A stretch of DNA of 64,000 nucleotides from the NCBI GenBank assembly GCA_963832205.1, contig CAWHTK010000005.1, forward strand, positions 44,318 to 108,317, read 5' to 3'. This document shows positions 1 to 49,533 of the stretch, piece after piece. Under the pieces are notes generated by a model. The model did no database searches and was not told the DNA's origin. It worked only from the letters and a program-made list of their open reading frames with translations. Origin of the DNA: Blastocatellia bacterium (GTDB lineage Bacteria > Acidobacteriota > Blastocatellia > UBA7656). Made by a program: the position numbers and the translations under genes. Each line of letters opens with the position of its first letter. Position 1 is the stretch's first letter.

Positions 1-4998
<4,998 letters not shown>

Positions 4999-15988: not shown

Positions 15989-15994
15989 GATTGA

Positions 15995-16039
15995 GGACTG
16001 AGGGCCGGCCGAGATAAGAATCGCTCGGCCCTCAGTCCT
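15995..16039. repeat. Hairpin element of the GGACTGAG...GAGGGCCGAG family, directly after the rpsL stop
   Basis: AGGACTGAGGGCCG ... CGGCCCTCAGTCCT 14-bp perfect inverted repeat with inner GCCGAG/CTCGGC pairing. Confidence 0.6.
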
Positions 16040-16058
16040 TCATAGCTTAGGTAAGGTT

Positions 16059-16532
16059 ATGCCAAGAAGAAGAGTCGCAGCTAAGCGGGAAGTCTTGCCG
16101 GACCCGATCTATAACTCCACGATGGTGACGAAGTTCATCAATTCGTTGATGTGGGGCGGCAAGAAGGCGGTGGCCGAACAGATATTCTACGGGGCGATGA
16201 GTTCTATTCAGGATAAGACTCAGGAAGACCCGCTGAAGACATTTAAGCGCGCGATGGACAACGTAAAGCCGAGGGTCGAAGTCAAGTCGCGCCGCGTGGG
16301 CGGCTCGACCTATCAGGTGCCCATCGAAGTTGATCAGAAAACTCGGGGCAACAGCCTTGCCATACGCTGGCTTATAAGCTACGCGCGCTCGCGCGCCGAG
16401 AAGACTATGATGGACCGCCTGGCCAGCGAGATACTCGATGCGGCCAACAATCGCGGCAATGCCGTCAAGAAGAAGGATGATACGCACCGGATGGCTGACG
16501 CTAACAAGGCCTTTGCGCATTACCGGTGGTAA
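16059..16532 (+). CDS. rpsG: 30S ribosomal protein S7
   Basis: [46 protein letters not shown]... Confidence 0.95.
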
Positions 16533-16615
16533 ATAGTCAGGGACCTGGAATCGGGGATCAGGGCCGGCCAGAACGGCCCCGAACTCCGGCTCCCGCCCCC
16601 GACCACTGAAGTCTT

Positions 16616-18715
16616 ATGTCAAAGCAAGCACCACTACAGATGTTTCGGAATATCGGCATCATGGCCCACATCGACGCGGGCAAGACGACGACGACCGAGC
16701 GGATACTCTATTACACAGGCGTCTCTTACAAGATCGGCGAGGTCCACGAAGGCACCGCCGTCATGGATTGGATGGAGCAGGAGCAGGAGCGCGGCATCAC
16801 CATCACTTCGGCCGCCACGACCTGTTTCTGGCCGCGCAACGGCGATGACTATCGCATAAACATCATCGACACGCCCGGCCACGTCGATTTCACCATAGAG
16901 GTCGAGCGCAGCCTTCGCGTCCTTGATGGCGCGGTGGCGGTCTTCGATGCTGTGGCCGGAGTCCAGCCCCAGTCAGAGACCGTGTGGCGTCAGGCCGATA
17001 AGTACAGCGTCCCGCGCATCGCTTTCATCAATAAGATGGACAGGCCCGGCGCGGACTTCGAGCATGCGATTGAGACCATACGCGAGCGCCTCAGCGCAAA
17101 CCCCGTCGCCATTCAGTTCCCGATCGGCGCGGAAGATCGCTTCCACGGGTTGGTTGACCTGATCACGATGCGCGCCATCATCTATAACGTCGAAGATAAG
17201 GGCGCCGAGCCGGACGTAGTTGATATACCAGCCGATATCAGGCCCGATGCCGAAGCGGCGCGCGAGCGCATGATAGAGATGCTTGCGGATGTTGATGACG
17301 CGGTGGCGGAAAAATACCTGGGAGGGGAGCCGGTCAGCGAAGATGAGATTCGCGCGGCACTGCGGCGCGAGACGATTGCCCTGAAGATCGTTCCGGTCGT
17401 CGCGGGTACGGCTTTTAAGAACAAGGGCGTGCAGCCGTTGCTCGACGCGGTCGTCGACTACCTGCCGAGCCCGCTCGATGTGCCCGCCGTCATGGGTATA
17501 AACCCGAGGACCGGCCAGGAGGAAGAGCGGCCGGCCGATCCCAAGGCGCCGTTTTCGGGCCTCGTCTTCAAGATCATGGCCGATAAGCATATCGGCACAT
17601 TGTCCTTCGTCCGCATCTATTCGGGCACGCTGAAGTCGGGCTCTTACACGCAGAATTCAACGCGCGGATCGAAGGAGCGCGTGGGCCGAATAATGCGCAT
17701 GCACGCAAACAAGCGAGAAGACATCGACCAGGCATCCGCGGGAGAGATAGTCGCGGTGGCGGGCCTTAAACAGGTGACTACGGGCGACACGATTTGTGAA
17801 GAGTCGCATCCGGTCATCCTTGAAGCGCTCGAATTTCCGGCCCCGGTCATCGCGCAGGCAATCGAGCCGAAGACGCGTCAGGATCAAGAGAGGCTCGGCA
17901 TCGGCCTTCAGAGGCTTGCGGCCGAAGACCCCAGCTTTAAGGTTAACACCGATCAGGAGACCGGCCAGACGATCATTCAGGGTATGGGCGAACTCCACCT
18001 TGAGATTATCGTTGATCGCCTGAGGCGGGAGTTCAGCGTCGAGGCGAACGTAGGCCGCCCGCAGGTCGCTTACCGTGAAACGATTCGCAAGCAAGCGGAA
18101 GGCGTGGGCAAGTTTGTTCGACAGACCGGCGGTCGCGGACAGTACGGCCATGCCGAAGTCCGCCTTGAGCCGCTTGAGCCCGGCACCGGGTTTGAGTTTG
18201 TAAACGGGATAGTCGGCGGCGTCATTCCCCGCGAATACATCAAGCCGGTCGAAGAAGGAATCAAGGAAGCCATGGAGCACGGCGTGCTCGCCGGCTACGA
18301 GATGGTCAACGTAAAAGCCACGCTGCACTATGGCAGCTTCCACGACGTCGATTCCTCGGAGATGGCATTCAAGATTGCGGGCTCGATGGCGTTCAAGGAC
18401 GCGGCCGCAAAGGCCAGCGCCGTGCTGCTTGAGCCGATTATGAAGGTTGAGATCGTCGCGCCCGAAGAATACATGGGTTCGATTACGGGCGACATAAACT
18501 CGCGCCGCGGCCGCATCGAGAGCATCGACTCGCGGCCGGGGACTTCGGTCATTACGTCGCTTGTGCCTCTGTCGGAGATGTTCGGCTACTCGACAGACCT
18601 GCGCTCGATGACCCAGGGCCGCGCGACATATACGATGCACTTCCATCGTTATGAGGAAGCGCCGCGCAGCGTGCGCGAAGAGATCATAGCTAAGGTGCAG
18701 GGCACCGCGAGGTAA
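16616..18715 (+). CDS. fusA: Elongation factor G
   Basis: [24 protein letters not shown]..., 699 aa, full GTPase plus domains II-V. Confidence 0.97.
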
Positions 18716-18775
18716 TAATTTTCCATCTCAGGTGGGCGCCCCGGAGGGCGCTCGCGGAAAAGGAGCTAGAATAAA

Positions 18776-19963
<1,188 letters not shown>

Positions 19964-20006
19964 TTGATCGGATGCGCACAAGGCGCTCCGGACTGAGAAA
20001 GTAAAG

Positions 20007-20333
20007 ATGCTTAACGAAAAGATTAGAATCAGGCTGAAGGCATATGATTACCGAGTGCTTGACCAGTCAACGGCTGAGATAGTTGACACGGCCAAGCGCA
20101 CGGGCGCGCGCGTCGCTGGCCCGATACCGCTGCCCACGGTCAAGAACAAGTACACCGTGCTGCGGAGCCCGCACGTGGATAAGAAATCGCGCGAGCAATT
20201 TGAGATTCGCACTCATAAGCGGCTCATGGACATACTTGACCCGACGCCGCAGACGGTCGATGCGCTCATGAAGCTCGATCTGCCTGCCGGCGTTGATGTC
20301 GAGATAAAAGCCTTCGGCAAAGACCACAAATAG
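20007..20333 (+). CDS. rpsJ: 30S ribosomal protein S10
   Basis: [44 protein letters not shown]... Confidence 0.95.
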
Positions 20334-20394
20334 GCGACAGGGCTTAGGCGACAGGTCGGGGAATTGACCGCGCGGCGGTCGAAGCCCATTGGCC

Positions 20395-20422
20395 TGCAAC
20401 CTGTAACCTGTAACCTGTAACC
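20395..20422. repeat. CCTGTAA x3 tandem heptamer / CTGTAACCTGT(A/C)ACC motif upstream of rplC
   Basis: gcaacctgtaacctgtaacctgtaaccc; related to the identical 16-mers at 35373-35388 and 63427-63442. Confidence 0.6.
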
Positions 20423-20433
20423 CGAGAGTTATT

Positions 20434-21063
20434 ATGGTCAACGGAATAATTGGTAAGAAGCTCGGAATGACGCAGATTTTTGCGTCGGACGGAACGGTTA
20501 CGCCGGTGACGGTCCTAAAGGCCGGCCCCTGCGTGGTCGTTCAAAAGAAGACCGTCAACAGTGATGGCTATGACGCGGTCCAGTTGGGGTTGGTCGAAGA
20601 GAAGCCGCCCCGCCGCGTTAATAAACCTACCGAAGGTCACTTCAAGCGCGCGGGCGTGCCGCCCACGCGCGTGCTGCGCGAGATCCGTGTAGATACGGGC
20701 GAGGAGGCGACCAATGTCGGCGATAAGATACTCGTCGATATGTTTAACGCCAATGACCTCGTGGAGATTGTCGGCAAGTCGAAAGGGCGCGGTTTCGCGG
20801 GGTTCATCAAACGCCACGGGTTTGCGGGCGGGCGCGCCACGCACGGTTCGATGTTTCACCGCGCGCCCGGAGGCATCGGCGCATCGGCATATCCGTCCCG
20901 CGTCTATAAAGGCACGCGCATGGCGGGCCACATGGGCGTCGAGCGAAAGACCATAAAGAACCTTCGCGTCGTAGCGGTCAACATCGAAAACAATCTGCTG
21001 ATGGTGCGCGGGGCGGTGCCCGGCCCGAACGGCGCATACGTGTTGATTAAGAAGGCGCAATAG
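20434..21063 (+). CDS. rplC: 50S ribosomal protein L3
   Basis: [37 protein letters not shown]... Confidence 0.95.
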
Positions 21064-21180
21064 TGAGAAGTCAGATGACCGAAGCCAGAAGACAGAATGG
21101 AAAAGGAAGTCGGCGCAAAGCGCTTACGCCTTTATTCTGACTCCTGACTTCCGACTCCTGACTCCTGATGGAGCAGAAAC
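21064..21180. repeat. Imperfect hairpin / tandem GACTCCTGA element (GAAGTCAGGAGTCAGAAT family) between rplC and rplD
   Basis: gaagtcag...acagaat ... attctgactcctgacttccgactcctgactcctga; shares the GTCAGGAGTCAGAAT motif with 37801-37884. Confidence 0.55.
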
Positions 21181-21810
21181 ATGCCTGTTGTGAAGGTAAA
21201 GAACCTTAAGAACGAAGAGGTGGGCGAGCTGGAGCTGTCGGACGAAGTGTTCGGCGCGCCGCTCAACAAGTCGCTCATTTACGAAGCGGTCAAGAGCTAC
21301 CTGGCCAATCAGCGCGCCGGCACATCGGCCACCAAGACGCGCGGCGACACGAGCGGGTCGGGCAAGAAGCTCTGGAAGCAGAAGGGCACCGGGCGGGCGC
21401 GCATAGCGAGCCTTCGAAGCCCGCTGTGGAAGGGCGGCGGAAACGTCCACGGCCCTCAGCCGCGCGACTGGTCCTACCGCATACCGAAAAAGATGCGTCG
21501 CGGGGCGATCCGGTCGGTGCTCTCCGAGCGGCTGCGCGAGGGCGGCATCATTATCGTCGAAAACTTCGAGCTTCAGTCGCACAAGACCAAGGACTTTGTC
21601 GCGGCGCTGGCGGGTCTCGGGTTGAGCAGGCGCACGCTGATAGTCGATTCGCTCGATAACAACAACCTGGCGTTGTCGTCGCGCAACCTGCCCAACGTTA
21701 CTTACATTGCGCCGACCGACGTGAACATATACAACCTGCTCACGCACGAGCAGGTTGCATTTACGCGCGAGGCGGCGGCCCAGCTCGAAAAGCAGCTCGG
21801 CAGTAAATAG
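21181..21810 (+). CDS. rplD: 50S ribosomal protein L4
   Basis: [48 protein letters not shown]... Confidence 0.95.
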
Positions 21811-21820
21811 GAGGCGGCTA

Positions 21821-22150
21821 ATGCAGACTATCTGGGATGTAATAAAAGGGCCGGTCATAACAGAGAAGGCGCTCACGATGAAGGACGAGCCCGAGTCGAT
21901 GGGTCGCGCCGGCAACGAGCGGCAGATACTTACGCTCAAAGTTGACGCCCGCGCGAGCAAGCCCGAGATCAAGCGCGCCGTCGAGCAGATCTTCGGCGTG
22001 AAGGTTGACGGGGTGCGAGTCGCCAACTTCCGCGGCAAGATGAAGCGCATACCGACGCGCCGCGAGACGGGCCGCAGACCGGGCTGGAAGAAAGCCTACG
22101 TCACGCTTAAGGCGGGCGAGAGGCCGATTATGTACGAAGACGCAATCTGA
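21821..22150 (+). CDS. rplW: 50S ribosomal protein L23
   Basis: MQTIWDVIKGPVITEKALTMKDE...; GGAGG 6 nt upstream; the longer ORF 21755-22150 overlaps rplD and is not the real start. Confidence 0.9.
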   Translation: MQTIWDVIKGPVITEKALTMKDEPESMGRAGNERQILTLKVDARASKPEIKRAVEQIFGVKVDGVRVANFRGKMKRIPTRRETGRRPGWKKAYVTLKAGERPIMYEDAI

Positions 22151-22241
22151 TTTTTGATTGCGGATTTTAGATTCTGGATTGGAGCGCGACCTCCTTTCCT
22201 TAATCCAAAATCCAAAATCTAAAATCCAAAATGGAAAAGCG
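22151..22241. repeat. Hairpin with AATCC/CCAAAAT pentamer-heptamer tandem repeats between rplW and rplB
   Basis: GGATTTTAGATTCTGGATTGG ... CCAAAATCCAAAATCTAAAATCCAAAATGG; GGATTTTAGATT pairs with AATCTAAAATCC. Confidence 0.6.
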
Positions 22242-23066
22242 ATGGGAATCAGAAAGCTAACACCTACGTCACCCGCGCGGCGCTACCAGACCTATCTCAC
22301 CCGCGAAGAGATAACGACGGACACGCCATACGAGCCGCTGCTTGCGCCCAAGAAGCGTATATCCGGGCGCAACCATCACGGCCACATAACGGTTCGCCGG
22401 CGCGGCGGCGGCGCAAAGCGCCATTACCGCATAATAGATTTCAAGCGCGACAAGACCGGCATTCCGGCCAAGGTAGAGACGATTGAGTATGACCCGAACC
22501 GCTCGGCCCATATCGCGCTGCTCAGCTACCTCGACGGGGAGAAGCGTTATATCATCGCGCCGGTCGGGCTCAAGGTTGGACAGTCTATAATCTCGGGCCC
22601 GGAGTCCGACATCATCCCCGGAAACGCCTTGCCGCTTCGCTTCATACCCCTGGGCACGACAATTCATAACATCGAATTGAGACCGGGCAAGGGGGCGCAG
22701 ATAGTCCGCGCGGCGGGCGGCGCGGCGCAGCTTGTGGCCAAGGAAGGCGACTGGGCGCAGCTCCGGCTGCCGAGCGGCGAAATCCGCCGCGTCAATATCG
22801 AGTGCTACGCCACGGTGGGCCAGATCGGAAACATAGAGCACAGCAACGTGAGCCTGGGCAAGGCCGGGCGCACGCGCTGGCTGGGCCGCCGCCCGAAAGT
22901 GCGCGGCGTGGCGATGAACCCGGTTGACCATCCGCATGGCGGCGGCGAGGGCAAGACTTCCGGGGGGCGAAACCCTGTCACTCCCTGGGGCCAGCCGACG
23001 CGCGGCTATAAGACTCGTAACAACAAGCGCACCGACAAGTTCATCGTGCGCAGAGCTAAAAAGTAA
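22242..23066 (+). CDS. rplB: 50S ribosomal protein L2
   Basis: [17 protein letters not shown]... [14 protein letters not shown]; true start inside ORF 22158-23066. Confidence 0.95.
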
Positions 23067-23138
23067 AGACTGAGCCGTGAGGGTCGGGCGAGAAACATCT
23101 CCCGCTCGGCTCCACAGTACTCAGCACTCGGAAGGGTT

Positions 23139-23426
23139 ATGGCAAGATCAATTAGAAAAGGGCCGTTCATTGATGAACACCTGATGAATAAGATATCGCG
23201 GATGAATTCGGCGAACGAGAAGCGGGTCGAAAAGACCTGGTCGCGCCGCTCGACGATTGTGCCCGAGATGGTGGGTCATACCATCGCCGTGCATAACGGC
23301 AAGAAGTTCATCCCGGTTTACGTTCAGGAGAACATGGTCGGGCACAAGCTCGGGGAGTTCTCGCCCACGCGGACTTTCAAGGGGCACCCCGAGAAGAGCG
23401 ACAAGACCGTAAAGAAAGGGAAGTAA
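23139..23426 (+). CDS. rpsS: 30S ribosomal protein S19
   Basis: [19 protein letters not shown]... Confidence 0.95.
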
Positions 23427-23429
23427 GCG

Positions 23430-23792
23430 ATGAAGGCACGCGCAGTCGCAAAATACATCAAGGGCTCGCCGCAGAAGGCCCGGCTGGTCATTGACCTCAT
23501 TCGCGGTCGCAACGTCAACGAGGCGCTTGCGATGCTGCGCGCGACCAACAAGCGCGCGGCGGGCCCGATTGAGATAACGCTACGGTCGGCCATTGCCAAC
23601 GCGACGCAGAAGGCCGATCAGCTTAACGTCACGATCGATGTTGACCGGCTCAAGGTATCTATGGCCGCCGTCAACCTCGGTCCGACCAAGTGGCGCCGCC
23701 GCGTCAGGCCCGCGCCGATGGGCCGCGCCTACCGCGAGCGAAGGTGGCAAAGCCATATCACCATCGAGGTGGAAACGGAAAAGGAAGATTAA
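23430..23792 (+). CDS. rplV: 50S ribosomal protein L22
   Basis: [36 protein letters not shown]... Confidence 0.95.
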
Positions 23793-23793
23793 T

Positions 23794-24450
23794 ATGGGTC
23801 AGAAAGTACATCCGTATGGCTTCAGGCTGGGGTTCAATCGCGGGTGGCATTCGAACTGGATTGCCAAGCGCGATTACGCGGACCTCTTGCACGAGGACCT
23901 GAAGCTCAAGAAGGAGTTGAAGAGGCGCTTTGCCGGCGCGGGCGTCTCCAACATCGACGTCGAGCGGGCGGCTAACAAGCTCAAGATCATCATCCACACT
24001 TCGCGGCCCGGCATCATCATCGGTCGCAAGGGCGCGGAGATCGACAAGCTGAAGCAAGAGATCAAAGAGCGCACGGGCCGCGAGGTCTATGTCAACATCC
24101 AGGAGATACATAAGCCGGAGCTGAACGCGCAGTTGCAGGCCGAACAGATCGCGCAGCAACTCGAAAAGCGAATCGCTTTCCGCCGCGCCATGCGACGAGC
24201 GGTCGAGAACGCGCAGCGGTTCGGCGCGCAGGGCATCAAAGTGCGCGTCTCCGGGCGGTTGAACGGGGCTGAGATCGCGCGCAGCGAATGGTACCTGCAG
24301 GGGCGGTTGCCGCTTCACACGCTCAGGGCCGACATCGATTACGGGTTCGCGCAGGCTTATACGACCTTCGGTGTCATCGGCGTCAAGGTCTGGATATACC
24401 GCGGCGACGAGTTGAGCATCCGCCGCGCAGCCCCAAGGCGACCTCAATAG
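23794..24450 (+). CDS. rpsC: 30S ribosomal protein S3
   Basis: [24 protein letters not shown]... (KH domain plus S3 C-terminal domain); start inside ORF 23593-24450. Confidence 0.95.
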
Positions 24451-24546
24451 CAGTGGTCTGGGGGCAGCGGTCAGTAGGCGGCGAGGAGGACTTCTCTTCG
24501 CGAAGAACTGACCGGCCGCCGCCGGCCACCGAGCAGTGGTGAAATT

Positions 24547-24987
24547 ATGGCTGAATATAAGATTCCAAAGCGAATGAAGTACCGCAAACAGCAGCGGGGC
24601 CGCATGAGCGGCGTCGCCACTCGGGGGGCGGAAATATCGTTTGGCGAGTATGGGCTCAAGGCGCTCGAGCCCGCCTGGATCACCGGCAAGCAGATCGAGG
24701 CTTCGCGCGTCGCCATGACTCGCTTCATCAAGCGCGGCGGCAAGATTTGGATAAGAGTCTTCCCGGATAAGCCGATCACCAAAAAGCCGGCGGAAACCCG
24801 CATGGGCAAGGGCAAGGGCGCGCCGGAAGGCTGGGTCGCGGTCGTCAAGCCCGGCAGGGTGCTGTTTGAGATGGAAGGCGTCAACGAAAAGACGGCGGCC
24901 GAAGCAATGAGGCTCGCCGCGCAGAAGTTGCCGATCAAGACCAAGTTCATCACGCGCAAGGATCAGGAGTCAGGAGGGTTGGTATGA
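24547..24987 (+). CDS. rplP: 50S ribosomal protein L16
   Basis: [39 protein letters not shown]... Confidence 0.95.
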
Positions 24988-25187
24988 AGGCCGATGAGAT
25001 GAGAGAGCTTTCGGATGAAGACCTGCGCGGCAGGGTGAACGAGCTGAAAGAGCAGATTTTTCGCATGCGGTTCAAGCTGTCGCTCGGGAACACCGACGTA
25101 GTAAAACAGTTGCGCGAATCGCGCAAGGACCTGGCGCGGGTCAAGACCCTGATGCGCGAGCGCGAGATTAACGCGGCGCAAAGCTAA
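24984..25187 (+). CDS. rpmC: 50S ribosomal protein L29
   Basis: [36 protein letters not shown]...; ATGA overlap with the rplP stop. Confidence 0.9.
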
Positions 25188-25211
25188 GGCCAGGGCATAC
25201 GCTTTTGAAGG

Positions 25212-25622
25212 GTGAGTATGGAAGATAATAAGAACGAGAATACGAATGAGAACGCCACGGAGACCAGCGAGGAAGGCGGCCTGCTGATTGACGCGGCTCG
25301 GGCCATCGGCTCGACAATTGGAAAAGTAGCCTCGGCCATAGGCGTGGGCGGCGAAACCGACGCGGCGACGCCGGCCAAGCGGAGGCGGCAGGAGAAGGTC
25401 GGGCTCGTGACGAGCGACAAGATGGAGAAGACGGTCGTCGTGCGCGTGGAGCGCCAGGTCCGACACCAGAAGTACAAGAGGTATATACGCCGCCGGTCGA
25501 AGTTCATGGCGCACGACGAGCTTGGCGCGCGCATAGGCGATACGGTCCGTATTATCGAGACCCGGCCGCTTTCGGCTCGTAAGCGCTGGCGCGTGATCGA
25601 GATTGTTCAAAGAGCAAGATAG
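25212..25622 (+). CDS. rpsQ: 30S ribosomal protein S17 with ~55-aa low-complexity N-terminal extension
   Basis: S17 core KVGLVTSDKMEKTVVVRVERQVRHQKYKRYIRRRSKFMAHDE... preceded by MSMEDNKNENTNENATETSEEGG...; true start uncertain. Confidence 0.8.
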   Translation: MSMEDNKNENTNENATETSEEGGLLIDAARAIGSTIGKVASAIGVGGETDAATPAKRRRQEKVGLVTSDKMEKTVVVRVERQVRHQKYKRYIRRRSKFMAHDELGARIGDTVRIIETRPLSARKRWRVIEIVQRAR

Positions 25623-25694
25623 GTAGCGGGGGACAGGTCATAGGCGGCAGGGGAGCGATTGTCTCACCCCGCCCCTGTTCGCTGGAGGACAGTT

Positions 25695-26063
25695 ATGGTT
25701 CAAATGAGGTCAATCCTTGAGGTCGCGGATAACTCCGGGGCCAAGCGCATTTCGATGATCCTGCCGCTGGGCGGCTCCACGGGGTCAAGGGCCGGACTTG
25801 GTGACATCATCACGGCATCGGTCAAGGAAGCCGCGCCCGACGGAGCGGTCAAGAAGGGGCAGGTGGTGCGCGCCGTCATAGTCCGCGTGCGCAAAGAGAC
25901 GCGCCGCAGGGACGGCACCTATATCCGCTTCGACCAGAACGCGGCCGTGATTATTAAGCCCGACAACGAGCCCGTCGGCACGCGCGTCTTCGGGCCCATC
26001 GCGCGCGAGCTGCGCGATAAGCGGTTTATGAAGATAGTGAGCCTCGCGCCCGAGGTGATCTAG
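25695..26063 (+). CDS. rplN: 50S ribosomal protein L14
   Basis: [22 protein letters not shown]...; start inside ORF 25659-26063. Confidence 0.95.
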
Positions 26064-26093
26064 GGCCGGTGGTCGGAAGTCAGACGAGGGATT

Positions 26094-26426
26094 ATGAACG
26101 TAGAGATCAACGTAAGAAAGAACGACCGGGTGATTGTGATAACGGGCAAGGACCGCGGCAAATCCGGCCGCATCATAGAAGTCCTTCCGCGTAAGCACAA
26201 GGTCATTGTGGAAGGCGTCAACGTCATCAAGCGGCACAGCAAGGCGAACACGAGGCGGGGCGTGCAAGGGGGAATACTTGAGCGCGAGGCCCCGATAGAC
26301 GTGTCGAACGTGATGCTCGTCTGCCCGCATTGCGGCAAGGGCACGCGCGCCGCGCACCAGGTGCTCGAAGACGGCAAGCGGCACCGCGCGTGCAAAAAGT
26401 GCGGCGCGGCTATCGAGAAACAGTAA
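26094..26426 (+). CDS. rplX: 50S ribosomal protein L24 with C-terminal Cys4 zinc-ribbon-like tail
   Basis: KOW region [19 protein letters not shown]; C-terminus ...[37 protein letters not shown]. Confidence 0.9.
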
Positions 26427-26497
26427 CGACGTGGGGCGAATGGTTCTGGCTACTGAAGGCAGCTCCCCACGGCGCATCAGTAGAAAGGGAAGACGGA

Positions 26498-27043
26498 ATG
26501 GCGAATAGGTTAGCGGAACGATACAAGAGCGAAATGATTCCGGCGCTGATGAAAGAGTTTAGCTACAAAAACATCATGGCCGTGCCGAAGATCGAGAAGG
26601 TTATCCTAAACATGGGCGTGGGCCGCGAGGCGCAGACGAACCCGAAGGTCTTCGATCAGGCGGCGATGGAGCTTTCGACCATCTCGGGCCAGAAGCCGGT
26701 GATCACCAAGGCCAAGAAATCGATCGCGGCGTTCAAGCTGCGCGCGGGCATGCCGGTCGGCGTGGCGGTGACGCTGCGCGGCGAGCGTATGTACGAGTTC
26801 CTGGACCGCTTCATCAACGCGGTGCTCCCGCGCGTGCGAGATTTTCGCGGGGTCAGCCCGCGCGCGTTCGACGGGCGGGGCAATTATACGATAGGCATCA
26901 AGGACCAGTTGATTTTCCCCGAGATCGATTTCAACAAAGTTGACCGGACGCGGGGCATGAACATATCGATAGTAACGACGGCACGCACGGATGAAGAGGG
27001 CCGCGCCCTCCTTCGCCAGTTCGGAATGCCGTTCATGAAATAG
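26498..27043 (+). CDS. rplE: 50S ribosomal protein L5
   Basis: [42 protein letters not shown]... Confidence 0.95.
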
Positions 27044-27106
27044 TTGTCAGGGGTCAGCGGCCGGTGACGAGATTACCGCTCGCCGGCCCTCGAACACAGA
27101 GGAACG

Positions 27107-27391
27107 ATGGCAAGATTATCATCAATGCACAAAGCCAATGAGCTGAAGCGCGCTTTGGAGAACGCCAAGGCCCGCGTGAAAGAGCAATATGGTTCGGCGG
27201 GAAAGAAGGCGATTAAGCGCGCGAAGTCGGAAGGCTTGAATTTCAACGTATTCACTTCGCGCGTCCACAACCGCTGCCGCCGCTGCGGCCGCGGCCGCGG
27301 ATACCTGCGCAAGTTCGCGCTGTGCCGAATCTGTTTCCGCGACCTTTCGCTTGAAGGGCACGTCCCGGGCGTAACAAAGTCGAGCTGGTGA
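27107..27391 (+). CDS. rpsN: 30S ribosomal protein S14, zinc-binding (type Z) core with ~33-aa N-terminal extension
   Basis: C-terminus [39 protein letters not shown] (CxxC...CxxC). Confidence 0.85.
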
Positions 27392-27475
27392 AATCGAGGA
27401 CTGAGCGATGAGGGGCGGAGGACTGAGTGAGTCGAAGTCGATGCCCGGTCCCTCGGTCCCGTACTAGGAGAAGCA
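27392..27475. repeat. Hairpin element of the GGACTGAGCGATGAGGG family after the rpsN stop
   Basis: gaggactgagcgatgaggggcggaggactgagtgag...; same motif at 28468, 33968, 23068 and reverse-complemented at 49481-49500. Confidence 0.55.
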
Positions 27476-27868
27476 ATGACAGATCCAATCGCGGACATGC
27501 TGACTCGCATACGCAACGCGTACGCGGCGAAGCACCAGAAGGTCGATGTGCCGCTGTCGAAGCTGAAGATCGAGATAGCGCGCATCCTCAAAGAAGAAGG
27601 GTTCATAAACAATTTTAAGGTGATCGGCGAAGGGCCCCGGCGCAACATTCGCGTTTACCTGCGCTACGGCCAGAAGGGCGAGCAGGTGATCACCGCGCTC
27701 GAGCGCGTGTCGAAGCCCGGCTGCCGCGTTTACGTCGGCAGCCAGACGGTGCCGAAAGTGCTCGGCGGGCTGGGCATAAATATTCTTTCGACCTCGCGCG
27801 GCCTTATGACCGATAGGCGCGCCCGACGCGAACGTGTGGGGGGCGAGATACTCTGCCGGGTCTATTAA
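27476..27868 (+). CDS. rpsH: 30S ribosomal protein S8
   Basis: [31 protein letters not shown]... Confidence 0.95.
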
Positions 27869-27907
27869 AGTCGCGGCACTCTAAACGTGCCGCCCGGAGT
27901 TGATTCG

Positions 27908-28462
27908 ATGTCGAGAATAGGTAAGAAGCCGATAGCTATTCCTAAAGGCGTAACCGTAAACATTAATGACGGCGCCGTCGAGGTGAAGGGGCCGAAGGGG
28001 ACGCTTACGACCCAACTGCCCGAGGGCGTAAAGTTGAGGCAGGAGGACGGCCAGTTGCTCGCCGAGCGCGAGTCGGACGACCACGCCGCGGTGCACGGGC
28101 TCGCCCGCGCGCTCATACAGAATGCGGTCACGGGCGTAACCGAAGGGTTCACGCGTCAGCTCGATATAGTCGGCGTTGGTTACAAGGCTGAGCTTCAGAG
28201 CCGCCGCGTGATATTCAACCTCGGCTATTCGCACCCGATTGAATTCCCGCTGCCTAACGGGATCGACGTAAAGATCGAGCGCGTCAATAAGCCGATCCAG
28301 CAGTATCAAACGACGCTCACGCTTACGGGCATCGACCGCCAGCAGATCGGGCAGGTCGCGGCCGACATGCGCAGCCTGCGCAGGCCCGATCCGTACAAAG
28401 GCAAGGGCGTGCGCTACACCAACGAAGTGCTAAAGCTCAAACCGGGCAAGACCGGGAAGTAA
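27908..28462 (+). CDS. rplF: 50S ribosomal protein L6
   Basis: [31 protein letters not shown]... Confidence 0.95.
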
Positions 28463-28585
28463 CGGGACTGAGCGAAGGGGAGCGGAGCGCTCATCTGTAA
28501 GCGTCCGACTCGGTCCCCGGTTCTCAACTAAGAGGGTTGCTGAAGTGAGGCTACTGGCCCAATCAGCGATCGAAGGTGAAACGAG

Positions 28586-28945
28586 ATGGCAAGAAAGACA
28601 AGCGAAGATATTCGAGAAGCGGTCCATAAGCGGATCAGGAGAAAAATACAGGGGAGCGAAGAGCGCCCGCGCCTGGCCATATTTCGCAGCGTCAATCACA
28701 TCTACGCCCAGGTCATCGACGATTCTAAAGGCGTGACGCTCGTGGCGGCTTCTACGACCGAGTCCGAATGGCGTGGCCGCACCGGCGGCAACATCGCGGC
28801 GGCCCGCGAGATCGGCAAGTCGATTGCCGAGCGCGCCAAAGCGAAGGGAATAAACCGCGTCGTCTTTGACCGCGGCGGTTACATATATCATGGTCGCGTG
28901 CGCAGCCTCGCCGAAGCCGCGCGCGAAGCCGGCCTGGAGTTCTGA
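28586..28945 (+). CDS. rplR: 50S ribosomal protein L18
   Basis: [46 protein letters not shown]... Confidence 0.95.
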
Positions 28946-28949
28946 GATT

Positions 28950-29453
28950 ATGGAACGTATAGATGCGAACGGTCTTGATCTGAAGGATCAAGTCATATCA
29001 ATCAACCGAGTGACCAAGGTGGTTAAGGGCGGTAAGAACCTGTCATTTGCCGCGCTGGTGGTGGTCGGCAACGAGAATGGCATCGTGGGCTTCGGCTCAG
29101 GCAAGGCGCGCGAAGTCCCGCTCGCCATCAAAAAGGGGATAGAAGCGGCCAAGAAGAATCTCATACGGGTGCCGCTGGCGGGCCATACTATACCTCATCA
29201 GATCATCGGCCTGTTCGGGTCGGGGCGAGTAATGCTCAAGCCCGCGCCTGAAGGCACGGGCGTGATCGCGGGCGGAGCGGTCCGCGCCGTCATGCAACTG
29301 GTGGGCGTGCGCGATGTGGTCACAAAGTCTATCGGCACATCGAACCCTCATAACGTAATAAGGGCGACTTTCGAGGGGCTGCGCGATCTTAAGGACCCGG
29401 CGGTCGTCGCGCGGCTGCGCCGTCAGGCCATCGAAGAAGCACAGACGGCATAA
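28950..29453 (+). CDS. rpsE: 30S ribosomal protein S5
   Basis: [41 protein letters not shown]...; start inside ORF 28866-29453. Confidence 0.95.
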
Positions 29454-29519
29454 CTCGAAGGACGAATTTGAGGTTTCAAATCTCAGATCGATCCTTCTGA
29501 ACGCGGAGGAGTCTTAACA

Positions 29520-29720
29520 ATGTCGGCCAATACGGAAGCAACCGGCCAGAAGATAAAGATACAGTGGTACCGCTCAACCATCGCGACACCGAAGGCGCAC
29601 AAGACTATAGTGCGTAGTCTCGGGCTTACGAAACTCAACCAGGTAGTTGAGCGCCCCGACACCCCCTCGATTCGCGGCATGGTCAAAAAGGTTCCGCACT
29701 TGTTGAGGATTATCGAATAG
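29520..29720 (+). CDS. rpmD: 50S ribosomal protein L30
   Basis: KIKIQWYRSTIATPKAHKTIVRSLGLTKLNQVVERPDTPSIRGMV... Confidence 0.9.
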   Translation: MSANTEATGQKIKIQWYRSTIATPKAHKTIVRSLGLTKLNQVVERPDTPSIRGMVKKVPHLLRIIE

Positions 29721-29732
29721 ATGTCGGGTGTC

Positions 29733-29785
29733 GGACGCCGCTTTGAGATTTGACTCTTTGGTTGAAATCTCAAAGCGGCGTCCGA
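29733..29785. repeat. Perfect 20-bp inverted repeat hairpin between rpmD and rplO
   Basis: CGGACGCCGCTTTGAGATTT (29733-29752) / loop gactctttggttg / AAATCTCAAAGCGGCGTCCG (29766-29785). Confidence 0.8.
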
Positions 29786-29806
29786 GTCCGCCATTCGGAG
29801 TCAATC

Positions 29807-30325
29807 ATGGCAATAGGCATACACAGCATCGGGGCGCCGAAAGGCGCGAATCGTAACAAGAAGCGGGTGGGGCGCGGTCCCGGCTCGGGGCTGGGCAAGA
29901 CGGCGGGGCGCGGCCACAAGGGGCAGAAATCGCGATCCGGTTATTCGAGCCGCCCTGGGTTTGAAGGCGGGCAGATGCCGCTGCAGCGGAGACTCCCGAA
30001 GCGCGGGTTCACCAACATCTTCAAGAAGCAGTGGCTCGAAGTGAAGCTGTCAGAGCTTGAGAAGAGGTTCGAGGCCGGCGAAGATATTACGCCGGAGCTT
30101 ATGAGCGAGCGCGGGATGATAAAGAAGAGTCACCTGACGCGCTTTTACGGCGTGGTTGTGCTCGGCGGCGGCGAGCTTACGAAGGCGCTCAACGTAACCG
30201 CGCATCGCTTCAGCCGCGGCGCGCGTGAGAAGATAGAAGGCGCGGGCGGACGGGCCACCCTTGTTGAGGGAGCGGCCTCGGCCGACGAATCGGCCGGCGA
30301 GGCTGCGCCGCAGACGGAACAATGA
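29807..30325 (+). CDS. rplO: 50S ribosomal protein L15
   Basis: [45 protein letters not shown]... Confidence 0.95.
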
Positions 30326-30415
30326 TAGATTAAATGGCGCGGGGCAAAAGCGGTTTTTCAGGCCCCGCTTTTGCCCGCCCGGGTTGTGTCATTGTAGTAA
30401 AGGGGTTTCAAGCTG

Positions 30416-31870
30416 ATGATCGAGAATTTCTTCAACAGTATTCGCAACGTCTTTTCCATTCCTGATCTGAGGAAGCGCGTGCTGTTCACCCTCTCCATGC
30501 TTGCGATCTACCGAATCGGGTCGCACGTTGACTCGCCGGGGCTTGACCGCACGGTGCTGGGGAATTTGTGGGAGACTGGCGCGCTGCACCAGAGCCTCGC
30601 CGGCGTCATGGACCTTTTTTCGGGGGGGAACTTTAAGGTCGTCTCGATCTTCGCGCTTGGGATCACTCCCTACATAACCGCTTCGATCATCCTGCAGTTG
30701 ATGACGGTCGTCAGCGCTCGCTTGAAAGCGCTTCAGGAAGAGGGCGAACTCGGCCGCCGCAAGATAAACCAGTACACGCGCTACCTGGCCGTCGTTCTGT
30801 GCGCCGTCCAATCCTTCGGCATCGCGGTATGGTTGCAGAACCAGTACGTCGGCGCGAGCCCGCTCGTCCCGAACCGGGGCATCGCCTTCGTCGCGATGAC
30901 GATGCTGACGCTTACGACCGGCACGACCTTCATAATGTGGCTCGGAGAGCAGATAACCGAGCGGGGCGTGGGCAACGGCATAAGCTTGATAATATTCGCG
31001 GGCATAGTGCTGAGACTGCCGTCGGCGGCCCAGACGGTTTACGAAAAGCTTGCCAGCGGGGGAACCGCGCAGGCGCTTGGCGTCATCCTGCTCGTGGTGG
31101 TGATGATATTCATCATCGCCGCGATAGTCTTCGTCGAGCGAGGCTTCCGCAAGATCCCGATCAATCACGCGCGCCGTCTGGTCGGTCGCCAGACCGTGCC
31201 GCAGCAGCAGACCCACATGCCGCTGAAGGTCAACATGGGCGGCGTCATCCCGGTGATCTTCGCGTCTTCCATCCTCGCCTTCCCGCAGACGATTCTGACC
31301 TTTGTCGTCAACGACCCGAATGCGACCGAAGGATGGCAGGGCTGGCTCGTGCGCCTGGCGAGCGAGGTGAGCGGGCAGGGCCATCCGCTCCATTATCTGA
31401 TTTACTCGGCCGCGATCATATTCTTCACCTTCTTCTACGTGTCGATCATCTTCAACACGGACGAAGTGGCGAACAATCTGCGCAAGAACGGCGCGTTCAT
31501 TCCCGGCATACGACCCGGCAAGCGCACGGCCGATTACCTGAACGAAATCCTGACGCGGCTTACGACCGTGGGCGCGCTCTACCTGGCGGTCGTGGCGTTG
31601 CTGCCGCAGTTCCTGCTATCGGGCTTCCAGTTCCAGTACCTGCCGTTCATAGGGCCATCGCTTGATGAGATGCTTAGGGGAAACCCGATCACGGCGTGGA
31701 TGGCCACCGGCATCGGCGTAGATTTCTTCTTCGGCGGGACGAGTCTGCTGATCGTAATAGGCGTGGCGATGGACACGATGAACCAGATCGAATCCCAGCT
31801 CATAATGCGCCACTACGACGGGTTCCTCGGGCCGCGCGGGCGCAGGTTGCGGGGCCGCCGCAGCTTCTAG
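30416..31870 (+). CDS. secY: Preprotein translocase subunit SecY
   Basis: 484 aa, 10 TM segments; [26 protein letters not shown]...; GCGGGGCAAAAGCGG...CCGCTTTTGCCC hairpin in the 90-nt spacer upstream. Confidence 0.97.
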
Positions 31871-31879
31871 CGAGGGCTT

Positions 31880-32578
31880 ATGCCGGAAATCATTGTCTTG
31901 ATGGGGCCACAAGGTGCGGGCAAGGGGACGCAGGCCAAGGCGCTGGCCGACCGATTAAACCTCCGAATAATCGCGACCGGAGACATGCTGCGCGAGATCG
32001 CGCAGGATGATACGCCGCTGGGGCGTCAGGTGCGCGAGGTACAGGCCGCGGGACAGCTTGTTTCCGACGACATATTGGCGGAAGTCGTGCGCGAGCGGCT
32101 CTGCCGCAGCGATTGCGAAGGCGGCTGCGTTCTCGACGGTTTCCCGAGGACGCTCCCGCAGGCGCGGTTGCTTGAGCAAATCGCCCAGGAGCGCGGCGCC
32201 CGCCTCGTCCCAATTGAAATAGGAGTCCCACGCGACATGCTCTTTAAACGGCTGACGGGGCGGCGGACCTGCTCGGCTTGCGGAGCGACGTATCACGTCG
32301 ACTTCAAGCCGCCGCGGGAGCGGGACGTCTGCGATCTGGATGGCTCGCCGTTATTTGTCCGCTCAGACGATACGGAAGACGCCATCAGGCAGCGGCTCGC
32401 GCTTTACGACGAAAAGACCCGGCCTATTCTCGATTACTACGCAGAGTCGGGCCGACTCTTGAATGTCAACGGCACCGGGACGCCGGACGATGTGGCCGAC
32501 CGCATCGCTTCCGTAATCAGAAGGCAGGGCGCGGCGGAAGGCGAGCGCCGGCTGGCGAATGAAGATTTGCAAAGCTGA
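31880..32578 (+). CDS. adk: Adenylate kinase (LID with Cys3-Asp metal site)
   Basis: MPEIIVLMGPQGAGKGTQAKALADRL... LID CSACGATYHV...CDLDGSPL. Confidence 0.95.
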   Translation: MPEIIVLMGPQGAGKGTQAKALADRLNLRIIATGDMLREIAQDDTPLGRQVREVQAAGQLVSDDILAEVVRERLCRSDCEGGCVLDGFPRTLPQARLLEQIAQERGARLVPIEIGVPRDMLFKRLTGRRTCSACGATYHVDFKPPRERDVCDLDGSPLFVRSDDTEDAIRQRLALYDEKTRPILDYYAESGRLLNVNGTGTPDDVADRIASVIRRQGAAEGERRLANEDLQS

Positions 32579-32596
32579 TGACTCGCCGGGGCGCGG

Positions 32597-33370
32597 GTGG
32601 ATTTTATGATCATCCGAAAATCAAAGGCCGAAATCGAAAAGATGCGCCATGCCGGTCAGATCGTGGCGCGGGTTTTGAGGCGACTCTCCTCTATGGTCGA
32701 GCCCGGCATCACGACGCAGGAACTCGATTTTGAGGCCGAGCGAATGATCCGCGAGGCAGGCGCCGTCCCTACCTTCAAGGGGTATCACGGCTACCCGGCT
32801 TCGATATGCGCGTCGGTCAATGACGAGGTGGTCCACGGGATTCCGGGCAACCGCAAGCTCCGCGAGGGCGACATTATCGGGATAGATTGCGGGGCCACAT
32901 ACCTGGGGTACGTGGGCGATTCGGCCGTCACTGTTCCGGTCGGCCATGTGAATGACGAAGTTACGCGGTTGATGGACGTCACCCGCGAATCGCTTCAACA
33001 GGCGATAGAGAAGTGCCGCGTCGGCAACCGGCTCGGGGATGTATGTAACGCCGTGCAGGCATATGTGGAACCGCAGGGGTATTCGGTCGTAAGAAACTAC
33101 TGCGGTCACGGGATAGGTCGCGCCATGCACGAAGAGCCGCAGATCCCGAACTACGGCAGGCCCGGGACCGGCCCGATCCTGCGCGAAGGCTGGGTAATTG
33201 CCATCGAGCCGATGATCAACCTCGGGCGTCACGACGTAAAGGTTCTGGCTGATGGCTGGACCGTGATTACGCTGGACGGGAGGCCCTCGGCCCACTTCGA
33301 GCACACGGTGGCGATCACCGCGGACGGTCCGCAGGTCTTAACCGCGCTCGATCACGCGGCGCAGGGCTGA
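32597..33370 (+). CDS. map: Methionine aminopeptidase type I
   Basis: ...[23 protein letters not shown]...[17 protein letters not shown]... Confidence 0.95.
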
Positions 33371-33469
33371 CGCGCGGTTGCGCCATGAGAGATCGAATGT
33401 TAAAATAACTGTTTCTTGTGCGCGAGATTTTCTTATCCTATCGCTTATGTCACGGGAAGGAAGAGTGAG

Positions 33470-33583
33470 ATGAAAGTCAGGGCATCAGTAAAGAAAATGT
33501 GTGATAACTGCAAGATCATCCACCGCCGAGGCGTGGTTCGGGTGATCTGCACCAACCCGAAGCATAAACAGCGTCAAGGGTAA
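33470..33583 (+). CDS. rpmJ: 50S ribosomal protein L36 (37 aa; absent from ORF track because below the length cutoff)
   Basis: Manual translation [37 protein letters not shown], preceded by GGAAGGAAGAG SD. Confidence 0.85.
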
Positions 33584-33601
33584 GCAGCTTACGGAGGAGC
33601 G

Positions 33602-33985
33602 ATGGCACGCATATCAGGTGTAAACCTGCCGGCGAATAAGAGGGCCGAGATCGGTCTTACATACATTTATGGGATCGGGCGTTCGCGCGCCAACAAGATA
33701 CTCGAAGAGGCCGGGGTTAGCATTGACAAGCGGGTTCGCGAGTTGAGCGAAGAGGAAGTCAATCGCATCCGCGGCGTAATTGATCAGCAGGGGATGGTCG
33801 AAGGCGATCTTCGCAAGCAGATCCAGATGGATATCAAGCGGTTGATGGACATAGGCTGCTACCGCGGCCTGCGCCATCGTCGCGGGCTTCCCGTCCGCGG
33901 CCAGCGCACGCACACAAACGCGCGCACCCGGAAGGGACCGCGCCGCGCCACCATCGCCAAGAAGAAAGCACCCGGCAAGAAGTAA
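33602..33985 (+). CDS. rpsM: 30S ribosomal protein S13
   Basis: [35 protein letters not shown]... Confidence 0.95.
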
Positions 33986-34055
33986 GACCTGAGCGATGAG
34001 GGCCGAGTAAAAGGATAAACGCTCGGTCCTTCGTTCTTCAGCACTCGGAAGGATT
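33986..34055. repeat. Hairpin element (GACCTGAGCGATGAGGGCCGAG family) plus conserved leader CAGCACTCGGAAGGATTATGGC upstream of rpsK
   Basis: cctgagcgatgagggccgag...ctcggtcc hairpin; the 3' part tcagcactcggaagg(a)ttatggcaa is near-identical to the sequence upstream of rpsS (23112-23145). Confidence 0.55.
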
Positions 34056-35303: not shown

Positions 35304-35405
35304 CCGTTGAAGGTTCCAAGGAGCAGGTTACAGGGCGCGGGGACCGTATGCTCCCCACTCTGTCATCTGTAACCTGTCACCTCTAACCTTATTTGAGAGG
35401 AAGCA

Positions 35406-36416
<1,011 letters not shown>

Positions 36417-36503
36417 AAAAAATACCGGGTCGCGGGCATTGCCTGATGAGTCAACTCATCGAGCAATATTCGCGACCCGACCTTGATTTATAAGAGGCTT
36501 GAT

Positions 36504-37801: not shown

Positions 37802-37884
37802 AAGTCAGGAGTCAGAATAAAAGAAAAAGCGTTTCGCGCTGACTTCATTTTCATTCTGTCTTCTGAATTCTGACTCCTGACTCC
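37801..37884. repeat. 18-bp inverted repeat GAAGTCAGGAGTCAGAAT / ATTCTGACTCCTGACTCC hairpin between accB and accC
   Basis: 17/18 complementary arms at 37801-37818 and 37867-37884; same motif family as 21064-21180. Confidence 0.75.
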
Positions 37885-37896
37885 CGACCATATCAT

Positions 37897-49435: not shown

Positions 49436-49533
49436 TACATCCTCCAGTTAAAAGGACTGAGCAGCGGAGGAGCGGAGGACTGAGTAAGAAACGTGTTCTG
49501 CTCAGTGCTCAGCCCTCATCGCTAAGTCCTGAA

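Follow-up and report, generated by a model that had tools for sequence, protein, structure and literature searches.

The ribosomal-protein operons of a Blastocatellia bacterium, contained in a 64,000-nt stretch of contig CAWHTK010000005.1 (positions 44,318 to 108,317; hereafter the window), are punctuated by hairpins whose arms are inverted arrays of tandem heptanucleotides, with the layout (unit)n - loop - (complementary unit)n. These elements occupy transcribed, co-directional gaps, in which they begin close behind a stop codon (median +4 nt) and end about 15 nt short of the following start codon, and they are neither regulators specific to ribosomal-protein genes nor intrinsic terminators. 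We interpret them as dispersed, rapidly renewed palindromic heptamer-array repeats that combine the build of the short tandemly repeated repetitive (STRR) sequences with the placement of repetitive extragenic palindromic (REP) sequences, any function being generic punctuation of the mRNA, a reading to which we assign a probability of roughly 0.55. On this interpretation they form a genome-wide and class-wide repeat system of Blastocatellia, especially Pyrinomonadaceae, with elements of ∼60–90 nt and 3–4 heptamers per arm.

The str/S10/spc/alpha cluster extends over 15596-37157 and comprises, according to the translations, rpsL, rpsG, fusA, tuf and rpsJ through to rpsD, rpoA and rplQ, with 10 of the proteins confirmed by Pfam (S12, S7, L2, S19, S14, S8, L6, L18, S13 and S11). 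A preceding sequence-only reading of the window had claimed that many junctions of these operons carry long spacers with strong inverted repeats, and this claim was borne out. After correction of the start codons, spacers were measured at the 33 junctions from rpsL to rplQ, and 22 of them were at least 40 nt long. When 21 of these long spacers (all except map-rpmJ) were folded and each was compared with 200 dinucleotide shuffles, the minimum free energy (MFE) had a mean z-score of -2.8, with z < -2 in 12 cases, as against a mean of -0.41 and z < -2 in 6 of 51 for 85-nt control segments from the same region. As an ungapped inverted-repeat scan at a score of at least 10 hardly exceeded shuffled sequence (24 versus 8–22), we relied only on inverted repeats scoring at least 12, together with the MFE z-scores. 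Among the further hairpins that had been proposed, those at rpsC-rplP and rplE-rpsN proved real, whereas the spacers of rpsQ-rplN, rplX-rplE (71 nt; z = +0.87) and rplO-secY (z = -0.74) did not stand out as whole-spacer folds (Table 1), although the last of these harbours a perfect 12-bp local stem.

The 7-nt period of the hairpin arms had escaped the sequence-only reading, as had the elements at rpoB-rpoC, accB-accC, rpsD-rpoA and rpoA-rplQ, which lie outside the coordinates it gave. In the spacers of the window the autocorrelation at lag 7 was 0.372 compared to a shuffle mean of 0.254 (z = 11.4), the value pooled over 762 Blastocatellia spacers was 0.459, and a further peak was present at lag 14; coding DNA showed a 3-nt period only. 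The period-7 arrays detected in the window by Tandem Repeats Finder (at 718, 20393, 21066, 21137, 22202, 35367 and 37870) all lie within spacers, and the periodicity sets in exactly at the stop codon. Such arrays include GGACTGA-GCGATGA-GGGCCGA, CTGACTC x4.6, CCTGTAA x4.3 and AATCCAA x4.4.

The anatomy of the elements was measured on 382 strong hairpins. The 5' arm begins at a median of 4 nt (mode 0) from the stop codon and the 3' arm ends at a median of 15.5 nt from the next start codon, which places the Shine-Dalgarno region outside the stem; median stem, loop and element lengths are 26 bp, 20 nt and 72 nt, respectively, with stems of 18–32 bp in the window. The typical layout is thus ∼4 heptamers, a loop of ∼20 nt and 4 complementary heptamers, reaching from the stop codon to just 5' of the Shine-Dalgarno. 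The units themselves are highly diverse (142 distinct heptamers in 483 spacers), TGA and TCA being enriched as units. We considered whether the arrays serve as stops in all three frames and rejected this, since stop trinucleotides are no more frequent than in shuffled sequence (0.057 versus 0.059) and all frames are closed within 21–45 nt in only 11–29% of spacers. Seeding of the arrays by the stop codon was likewise set aside as a minor effect, the two being in phase in ∼5% of spacers compared to ∼1.5–2% at most other offsets.

Two properties of the arms point in opposite directions as to mechanism. G exceeds C in the 5' arm of 327 of the 382 hairpins (86%; G 29%, C 13%, T 32%, A 26%), and a G/T-rich 5' arm precedes a C/A-rich 3' arm whichever strand is transcribed. 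As this polarity is unaffected by reverse complementation, it belongs to the element and not to its orientation. It may stem from filtering of the RNA, in that a C-rich arm, if transcribed first, would lie exposed as a single strand and a G/T-rich arm placed before the next gene would mimic Shine-Dalgarno sequences or start codons; alternatively, it could be a consequence of how the elements are made. Stem mismatches on the sense strand, by contrast, are G:T in 356 and A:C in 382 cases, without wobble bias, and the complementarity therefore follows the rules of DNA rather than those of RNA wobble pairing. Such a pattern is expected of recently copied palindromes and is unlike the outcome of long-term selection on an RNA helix.

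Recurrence within the window is clearest for the GGACTGAGCGATGAGGG-type hairpin (TGAG-type in Table 1), which had been described as following the stop codons of rpsL, rplB, rpsN, rplF and rpsM and as having a reverse-strand copy near trxA and glgA. Alignment confirmed six copies, each beginning 0–6 nt past a stop codon, the sixth following glgA on the minus strand; two positions had to be amended, in that the copy behind rpsM begins at 33986 (not 33968) and the reverse-strand copy spans 49453-49530 (not 49443-49500). The rplB-rpsS and rpsM-rpsK spacers are 73% identical, up through the Shine-Dalgarno. The two objections that the sequence-only reading had itself raised, namely chance matches and a motif unique to this window, do not hold: the named 22-mer occurs at 3 sites with at most 3 mismatches in the window and at none in 100 shuffles, a result joined by the MFE z-scores and the lag-7 signal, and hairpins of this kind recur in the metagenome loci and the ∼50 related genomes described below.

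The nearest relatives of the window are metagenome-assembled genomes (MAGs) of Blastocatellia / Pyrinomonadaceae (Acidobacteriota), the top S17 match among GTDB contigs (one genome per species) being 75% identical. To place the spacers in a comparative frame, the 33 junctions were mapped in 80 loci centred on rpsQ, ∼50 of them from Blastocatellia. In these ∼50 loci 40–87% of junctions have spacers of at least 40 nt and median spacers are mostly 60–90 nt (13–40 nt in a few sparsely occupied lineages), while medians are 3–20 nt in Vicinamibacteria, another Acidobacteria MAG, Actinomycetota and most Flavobacteriales. The junctions rplD-rplW, rplP-rpmC, rplN-rplX and rplR-rpsE are tight nearly everywhere, and in the cultured Pyrinomonas methylaliphatogenes K22 the spacers are shorter and show no heptamer signal. 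Heptamer-armed hairpins with CAGTTGY / GACAACN units are also present in high-GC (60–64%) Flavobacteriales MAGs (L047, L052, L058, L063 and L066), at rpsM-rpsK, rpsD-rpoA and rpoA-rplQ, so that the architecture recurs across phyla and is not confined to Acidobacteria. Only the rpsK-rpsD spacer is widely conserved, its sequence being shared by 58% of genome pairs as opposed to 1–17% at the other junctions.

Within single genomes the same heptamer recurs at many junctions, as seen for ACCTATC (13 junctions in L022), AAAACTG (11 in L025) and ACTCAGG/ACTCAGC (L002 and L003). Several families coexist in a genome, with at least 10 units in single genomes, and the family at a given junction differs between genomes. 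The best BLAST match lies at a non-orthologous junction for 341 of the 574 spacers that have any match; the rplW-rplB element of the window, for instance, shares 33 of 33 nt with the rpsE-rpmD element of L002. Comparison of close relatives revealed rapid turnover. L002 and L003, with 90.3% coding-DNA identity, differ by the presence or absence of elements (spacers of 125 versus 15 nt at rplW-rplB, 22 versus 84 at rpsH-rplF and 160 versus 42 at rpsE-rpmD) and by replacement of one family with another at rpsC-rplP, and the empty junctions look normal. L011 and L013, with 93.5% coding identity, carry unrelated heptamers at most junctions, with spacer length almost unchanged. In L002 the same ∼110-nt composite element, nested 30-nt GC-rich module included, occupies three junctions, and the module alone a fourth; an identical composite at three junctions is direct evidence of copying between sites. 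The palindromic module, CATGGCGGATGATGCGCTTGCGCGCACCGC, lies inside heptamer arrays (L002 positions 2269, 4680, 5875 and 9532) and resembles the small dispersed repeats reported within heptamer repeats of Nostoc. Taken together, these comparisons show that the turnover of families, by replacement, gain and loss, far outpaces the divergence of the flanking genes, and that whole composite elements are copied between junctions.

The hairpins had been presented as a property of ribosomal-protein operons, of which an enrichment there remains. In the window, ∼14 of the 33 ribosomal-protein junctions are occupied compared to 3 of ∼17 others, and elements lie at rpoB-rpoC, accB-accC and glgA-trxA; in non-ribosomal regions of relatives, heptamer hairpins were found in 3 of ∼9 (L119) and 1 of ∼12 (L121) co-directional gaps, and no element in the divergent and convergent gaps examined in the window, L119 and L121. 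A metagenome scan for the 22-mer family of the window returned 38 loci, ∼24 of which are genuine heptamer arrays, with an identical GGACTGAGCGATGAGGGCTGAG in 13 loci. The genuine arrays lie on contigs of 46–69% GC. In several loci (e.g. L081, L082, L083, L087, L091 and L092) the array begins 0–5 nt past, or overlaps, the upstream stop codon, and the adjoining genes are mutually unrelated (encoding an aminotransferase, an FtsX permease, a LysM protein, an EF-G paralogue, an ABC ATPase and hydrogenase-like, BamB-like and nitroreductase proteins). The EF-G next to the motif in L087 is only ∼46% identical to the FusA of the window. In these small samples, then, the ribosomal-protein cluster is enriched in the elements, which are not restricted to it. 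We note that L121 also contains, at 17646-17792, a near-perfect ∼40-bp hairpin (MFE -86 kcal/mol for the 147-nt co-directional gap) that lacks a 7-nt period and so represents another type of palindromic element within this clade.

Several known classes of RNA element do not account for these hairpins. Terminator-like sites number 20 between 15500 and 35499, versus 20.3 expected by shuffle, and none coincides with a spacer hairpin, which excludes the intrinsic terminator (a GC-rich stem-loop followed by a U-tract). Rfam searches at gathering thresholds and at E <= 1 returned nothing relevant, a mir-335 hit at 37782-37893 (E <= 1) being spurious and due to hairpin shape alone. Ribosomal-protein autoregulatory leaders were rejected on the same lack of Rfam matches and on the low similarity of spacers at the same junction (1–17% of pairs, rpsK-rpsD apart), and these three results give no support to the suggestion that the hairpins are attenuators. 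In the early mRNA of phage T7, conserved and specific RNase III sites with internal loops and demonstrated cleavage lie between nearly every cistron. Like them, the Blastocatellia hairpins lie between nearly all cistrons of a highly expressed polycistronic transcript, and their stems are of the length that RNase III calls for (∼20 bp or more, largely continuous); unlike them, they are unconserved repeats known from their sequence alone.

The suggestion that the elements are REP-like or like miniature inverted-repeat transposable elements (MITEs) was right in part. REP sequences, bacterial interspersed mosaic elements and REP doublets forming hairpins, found in Enterobacteria and Pseudomonas, occupy intercistronic and 3'-end gaps rather than promoters and have proposed mRNA-stabilising roles. 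The Blastocatellia elements are likewise dispersed families of short, imperfect, multicopy palindromes in transcribed extragenic gaps past stop codons, and only in co-directional ones, although they have no single consensus and their arms are internally 7-nt periodic. They also do not share the conserved GTAG or CGTC tetranucleotide found at one end of REP sequences (Di Nocera et al., PMC3733652), since the six TGAG-type copies and the other elements start variously with GGAC, AGAC, GATT and so on. As to MITEs, no target-site duplication was found between filled and empty L002/L003 junctions (rplW-rplB, rpsH-rplF and rpsE-rpmD), the ends of the elements being the heptamer arrays themselves. 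No gene for a REP-associated tyrosine (Y1) transposase was seen in the 64-kb window, a span too small to be informative.

In their build the elements are closer to heptamer repeats described elsewhere. The STRR sequences are cyanobacterial heptanucleotide repeats in the accounts that cite the original work (Mazel et al. 1990; Mrazek et al. 2007, as cited in PMC4692102, PMC4679880), and the same accounts relay that the excess of 7-nt units in bacterial repeats has been ascribed to polymerase slippage (Mrazek et al. 2007, cited in PMC4692102, PMC4679880). Common to STRR and Blastocatellia elements are exact 7-nt tandem units, an intergenic location, several families per genome and fast variation of length and sequence between close relatives. 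STRR sequences were, however, originally defined in (heterocystous) cyanobacteria, whereas the host here belongs to the Acidobacteriota, and nearly every Blastocatellia array pairs with its reverse complement to form a hairpin of 20–30 bp; the arrays also occupy most intra-operon junctions and use more than 140 units. The intergenic heptamers GGGAATC of Xanthomonas and GGGGAYT of Nostoc, some of them within operons (pecE-pecF) and some in inverted stem-loop pairs (PMC4692102), are similarly G-rich and partly inverted, but they were investigated for their ability to form G-quadruplexes and mostly consist of one unit type in direct array, whereas the Blastocatellia elements are mainly inverted, draw on many units and are not generally prone to form G-quadruplexes. 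TAACTGA direct repeats of Beggiatoaceae, Cyanobacteria and Bacteroidetes lie just upstream of start codons and often replace the Shine-Dalgarno (PMC4679880). They too are intergenic heptamers containing TGA, sometimes overlapping the upstream stop codon, providing stops in all three frames and having a patchy phyletic spread (PMC4679880); in contrast to these direct arrays of one unit, those of Blastocatellia are inverted, follow directly on the stop codon and spare the Shine-Dalgarno. Finally, Geobacter metallireducens has multicopy sites of 4–5 tandem heptamers (GGACCGG; MTYCTGA), with strand-switching loops shown in the figure for MTYCTGA (PMC2700814), and their CTGA-containing units recall GGACTGA and CTGACTC of the window. 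This likeness is one of description only, those sites being annotated as regulator-binding sites or regulatory RNA, in a few dozen copies and with no junction saturation reported (PMC2700814). In the open-access literature we found no published account of such elements in Acidobacteria, nor of operon junctions near-saturated by inverted heptamer arrays.

How, then, might the hairpins be explained? That they are chance matches, low-complexity sequence or an assembly artefact is refuted: several frameshifts in the window do suggest indel errors, but the shuffle controls oppose chance and the same architecture is found in ∼50 independently assembled genomes, from short and long reads, as well as in metagenome contigs of the Joint Genome Institute. 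It is highly improbable, and largely refuted, that they are gene-specific autoregulatory leaders, attenuators or intrinsic terminators. Strong hairpins in ribosomal-protein operons would fit such a role, and two separate conserved structures (the rpsK-rpsD spacer and a hairpin upstream of rplR, see below) are reminiscent of it, yet the Rfam, terminator and conservation results given above oppose it, and a given element family recurs next to many different genes. Binding by a protein that recognises 7-nt units, for instance one of the cold-shock/OB-fold type or a global regulator, would explain why the period is strict while the sequence varies, and has been proposed for TAACTGA in Beggiatoaceae and MTYCTGA in Geobacter metallireducens (PMC4679880, PMC2700814). 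We regard it as improbable here, because the arrays are always paired with their complement, which would make the RNA double-stranded and not a single-stranded ligand; a single sequence-specific binder is excluded by the 142 heptamers and by the presence of at least 10 units within single genomes.

A possible, if less probable, alternative to dispersed repeats is that the hairpins are positively selected intercistronic RNA structures that cut or insulate the mRNA, much as the T7 RNase III sites do, or block 3'-exonucleases, selection acting on structure and geometry and not on sequence. In its favour are the near-saturation of junctions and the uniform geometry seen in more than 40 genomes, arms that always change together, even across heptamer families, the restriction to co-directional transcribed gaps, the Shine-Dalgarno kept free and an arm polarity that does not depend on which strand is transcribed; at about 26 bp, the stems are also long enough to serve as substrates of a double-strand-specific RNase such as RNase III. 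Against it, close relatives differ in the presence of elements and their empty junctions look normal, G:U-compatible mismatches are not preferred over A:C, the same families adjoin unrelated genes, and cultured K22 does with shorter spacers devoid of heptamers. Selected structure and selfish repeat are not mutually exclusive.

We therefore favour dispersed heptamer-array repeats, whose arms would grow and homogenise by 7-nt replication slippage and which would spread by copy-paste or gene conversion through some agent. Essential operons would accommodate them because each forms a single long stem in the transcript, which would keep the stop codon near the next ribosome-binding site and expose no unstructured C-rich RNA, and any action would probably be that of REP sequences, as a 3'-exonuclease barrier or a substrate for a double-strand RNase. 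Several observations weigh against this interpretation. Occupancy of 70–87% at a near-constant ∼88 nt in dozens of Pyrinomonadaceae species is more uniform than purely neutral or selfish insertion would lead one to expect; one family is replaced by another at unchanged length; the 86% arm polarity points to selection at the RNA level or to a specific generating mechanism; a mobilising enzyme, a target-site duplication and an insertion intermediate were all not found in the window and in the ∼20-kb pieces of relatives; and the enrichment in ribosomal-protein operons comes from the small samples cited above. A more far-reaching idea, which we consider doubtful, is a dedicated Blastocatellia system that builds and renews a standard module (4 heptamers, a loop and 4 complementary heptamers, with the G/T-rich arm 5') used to segment or insulate the mRNAs of the highest-expressed operons. 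Conceivably, a G/T-rich heptamer array would first be synthesised from a template and then copied by folding back. Were this idea true, such machinery, and not slippage plus selfish spread, would have left its mark in the 7-nt period, the fixed geometry and the strand-symmetric polarity.

Table 1. Hairpin elements of the window. Positions are those of the window unless a locus is named; z, MFE z-score against dinucleotide shuffles.
Feature	Position	Strand	Spacer (nt)	Description
rpoB-rpoC hairpin	669..742	+		period-7 3' arm, CGGACCC units 718-736
rpsL-rpsG hairpin, TGAG-type	15993..16040	+	70	arms 15994-16012, 16021-16039; z = -5.2
rpsG-fusA hairpin	16536..16603	+	83	degenerate heptamer arms GGACCTG GAATCGG GGATCAG; z = -1.9
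fusA-tuf hairpin	18721..18765	+		GC-rich, no heptamer period; z = -2.4
rpsJ-rplC hairpin and CCTGTAA x4.3 array	20337..20422	+	100	array 20393-20422; z = -2.9
rplC-rplD heptamer hairpin	21066..21168	+	117	AGAAGAC x4.6 (21066-21097) versus CTGACTC x4.6 (21137-21168); z = -3.7
rplW-rplB heptamer hairpin	22151..22238	+	91	GGATTTT / AATCCAA x4.4; z = -4.4
rplB-rpsS hairpin, TGAG-type	23067..23124	+	72	begins +1 past stop
rpsC-rplP hairpin	24453..24529	+	96	28 bp; z = -3.9
rpsQ-rplN hairpin, weak	25627..25684	+	81	G-rich 5' arm; z = -0.84
rplE-rpsN hairpin	27045..27096	+	63	lag-7 autocorrelation 0.45; z = -1.8
rpsN-rpsH hairpin, TGAG-type	27395..27461	+	84	motif 27398-27419
rplF-rplR hairpin, TGAG-type	28464..28517	+	123	5' half of spacer
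hairpin upstream of rplR	28535-28571			3' half of rplF-rplR spacer; L001 8277-8320, L002 8601-8630, L004 9074-9109, L007 3950-3975
rpsE-rpmD hairpin	29455..29500	+	66	TTTGAGG / AAATCTC type
rpmD-rplO hairpin	29721..29794	+	86	perfect 21-bp arms 29731-29751, 29765-29785; z = -7.5
rplO-secY hairpin	30329..30398	+	90	perfect 12-bp core 30342-30353, 30365-30376; no heptamer period
rpsM-rpsK hairpin, TGAG-type	33986..34046	+	70	begins +1 past stop; motif 33986-34007; z = -2.4
rpsD-rpoA hairpin	35305..35395	+		CTGTAAC x3.3 arms 35310-35333, 35367-35390
rpoA-rplQ hairpin	36426..36479	+		z = -8.0; heptamers not clear
accB-accC heptamer hairpin	37803..37882	+		AGTCAGG / CTGACTC; same family as rplC-rplD element
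glgA-trxA hairpin, TGAG-type	49453..49530	-		sense-strand motif GGACTTAGCGATGAGGGCTGAG begins 4 nt past glgA stop

Apart from the repeats, the cluster contains two conserved non-coding structures. The rpsK-rpsD spacer (34464-34664) measures 201 nt in the window, ∼120–300 nt in Blastocatellia and 11–83 nt in most outgroups; it has no Rfam match at E <= 1 and is a candidate for an internal promoter or an S4 leader. A conserved non-repeat hairpin, GCUGAAGUGA...CAAUCAGC, directly precedes rplR (L18) in five genomes of the clade of the window. Its variable inner stem has compensatory changes at three base pairs, and it is a possible L18-related leader or kink-turn-like motif.

Some ribosomal proteins and their surroundings also deserve mention. 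S17 carries an acidic, Asn-rich N-terminal extension of ∼55 residues (encoded in the 5' part of rpsQ, 25218-25380) that is common to the closest relatives, tblastn covering query residues 1-134 in L001-L004 and L007, and L24 (rplX, 26094-26426) has a C-terminal extension with two CxxC pairs (CPHCG...CKKCG) and the look of a zinc ribbon. By tblastn, infA was found neither between map and rpmJ (spacer 33371-33469) nor elsewhere in the 64-kb window; IF-1 is encoded in the 336–527-nt map-rpmJ gap of the Pyrinomonadaceae loci L010, L016 and L032. Many of the MAG contigs (loci L001-L045) end ∼5–6 kb upstream of rpsQ, near the position of tuf, which suggests a recurrent assembly break, perhaps from duplicated tuf.

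The window starts with rpoB and rpoC, and 3' of rplQ lie accB and accC and, farther on, purA, trxA and glgA. Two of these essential genes are frame-split, rpoC (762-1916 / 1861-4998) and accC (37897-38475 / 38330-39289), each continuing in another frame, and trxA (49244-49435, minus strand) apparently has one extra A ahead of a protein motif, as read from the sequence; indel errors in the assembly are the likeliest cause of these frameshifts, more so than decay into pseudogenes. A large AAA_35 NTPase with WD40 repeats (10895-14362) contains ∼126-nt periodic DNA repeats in at least 9 copies, its reading frame being apparently broken between 12586 and 13298, and tandem repeats of 30 and 60 nt occur at 7616-8190, within or beside the open reading frame 7637-8395. 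Ahead of two successive genes on the minus strand lies a 68-nt direct repeat (72% identical; 54707-54774 and 55525-55592), perhaps a regulatory region or leader that they have in common.

Few bacterial gene arrays are as compact and conserved as ribosomal-protein operons, and the widening of nearly all junctions to ∼90 nt, by hairpins of standard shape and variable sequence, changes what counts as a normal operon architecture for an abundant class of soil bacteria. The elements are likely to hamper the assembly of Blastocatellia MAGs and the calling of their genes, and they may be useful as fast-evolving strain markers. Hundreds of arrays, with more than 140 units and with replacements between close genome pairs, provide comparative data on the unexplained preference of bacterial repeats for 7-nt units, and the operons themselves offer a natural system in which to ask how genes linked in translation tolerate long structured inserts between them.

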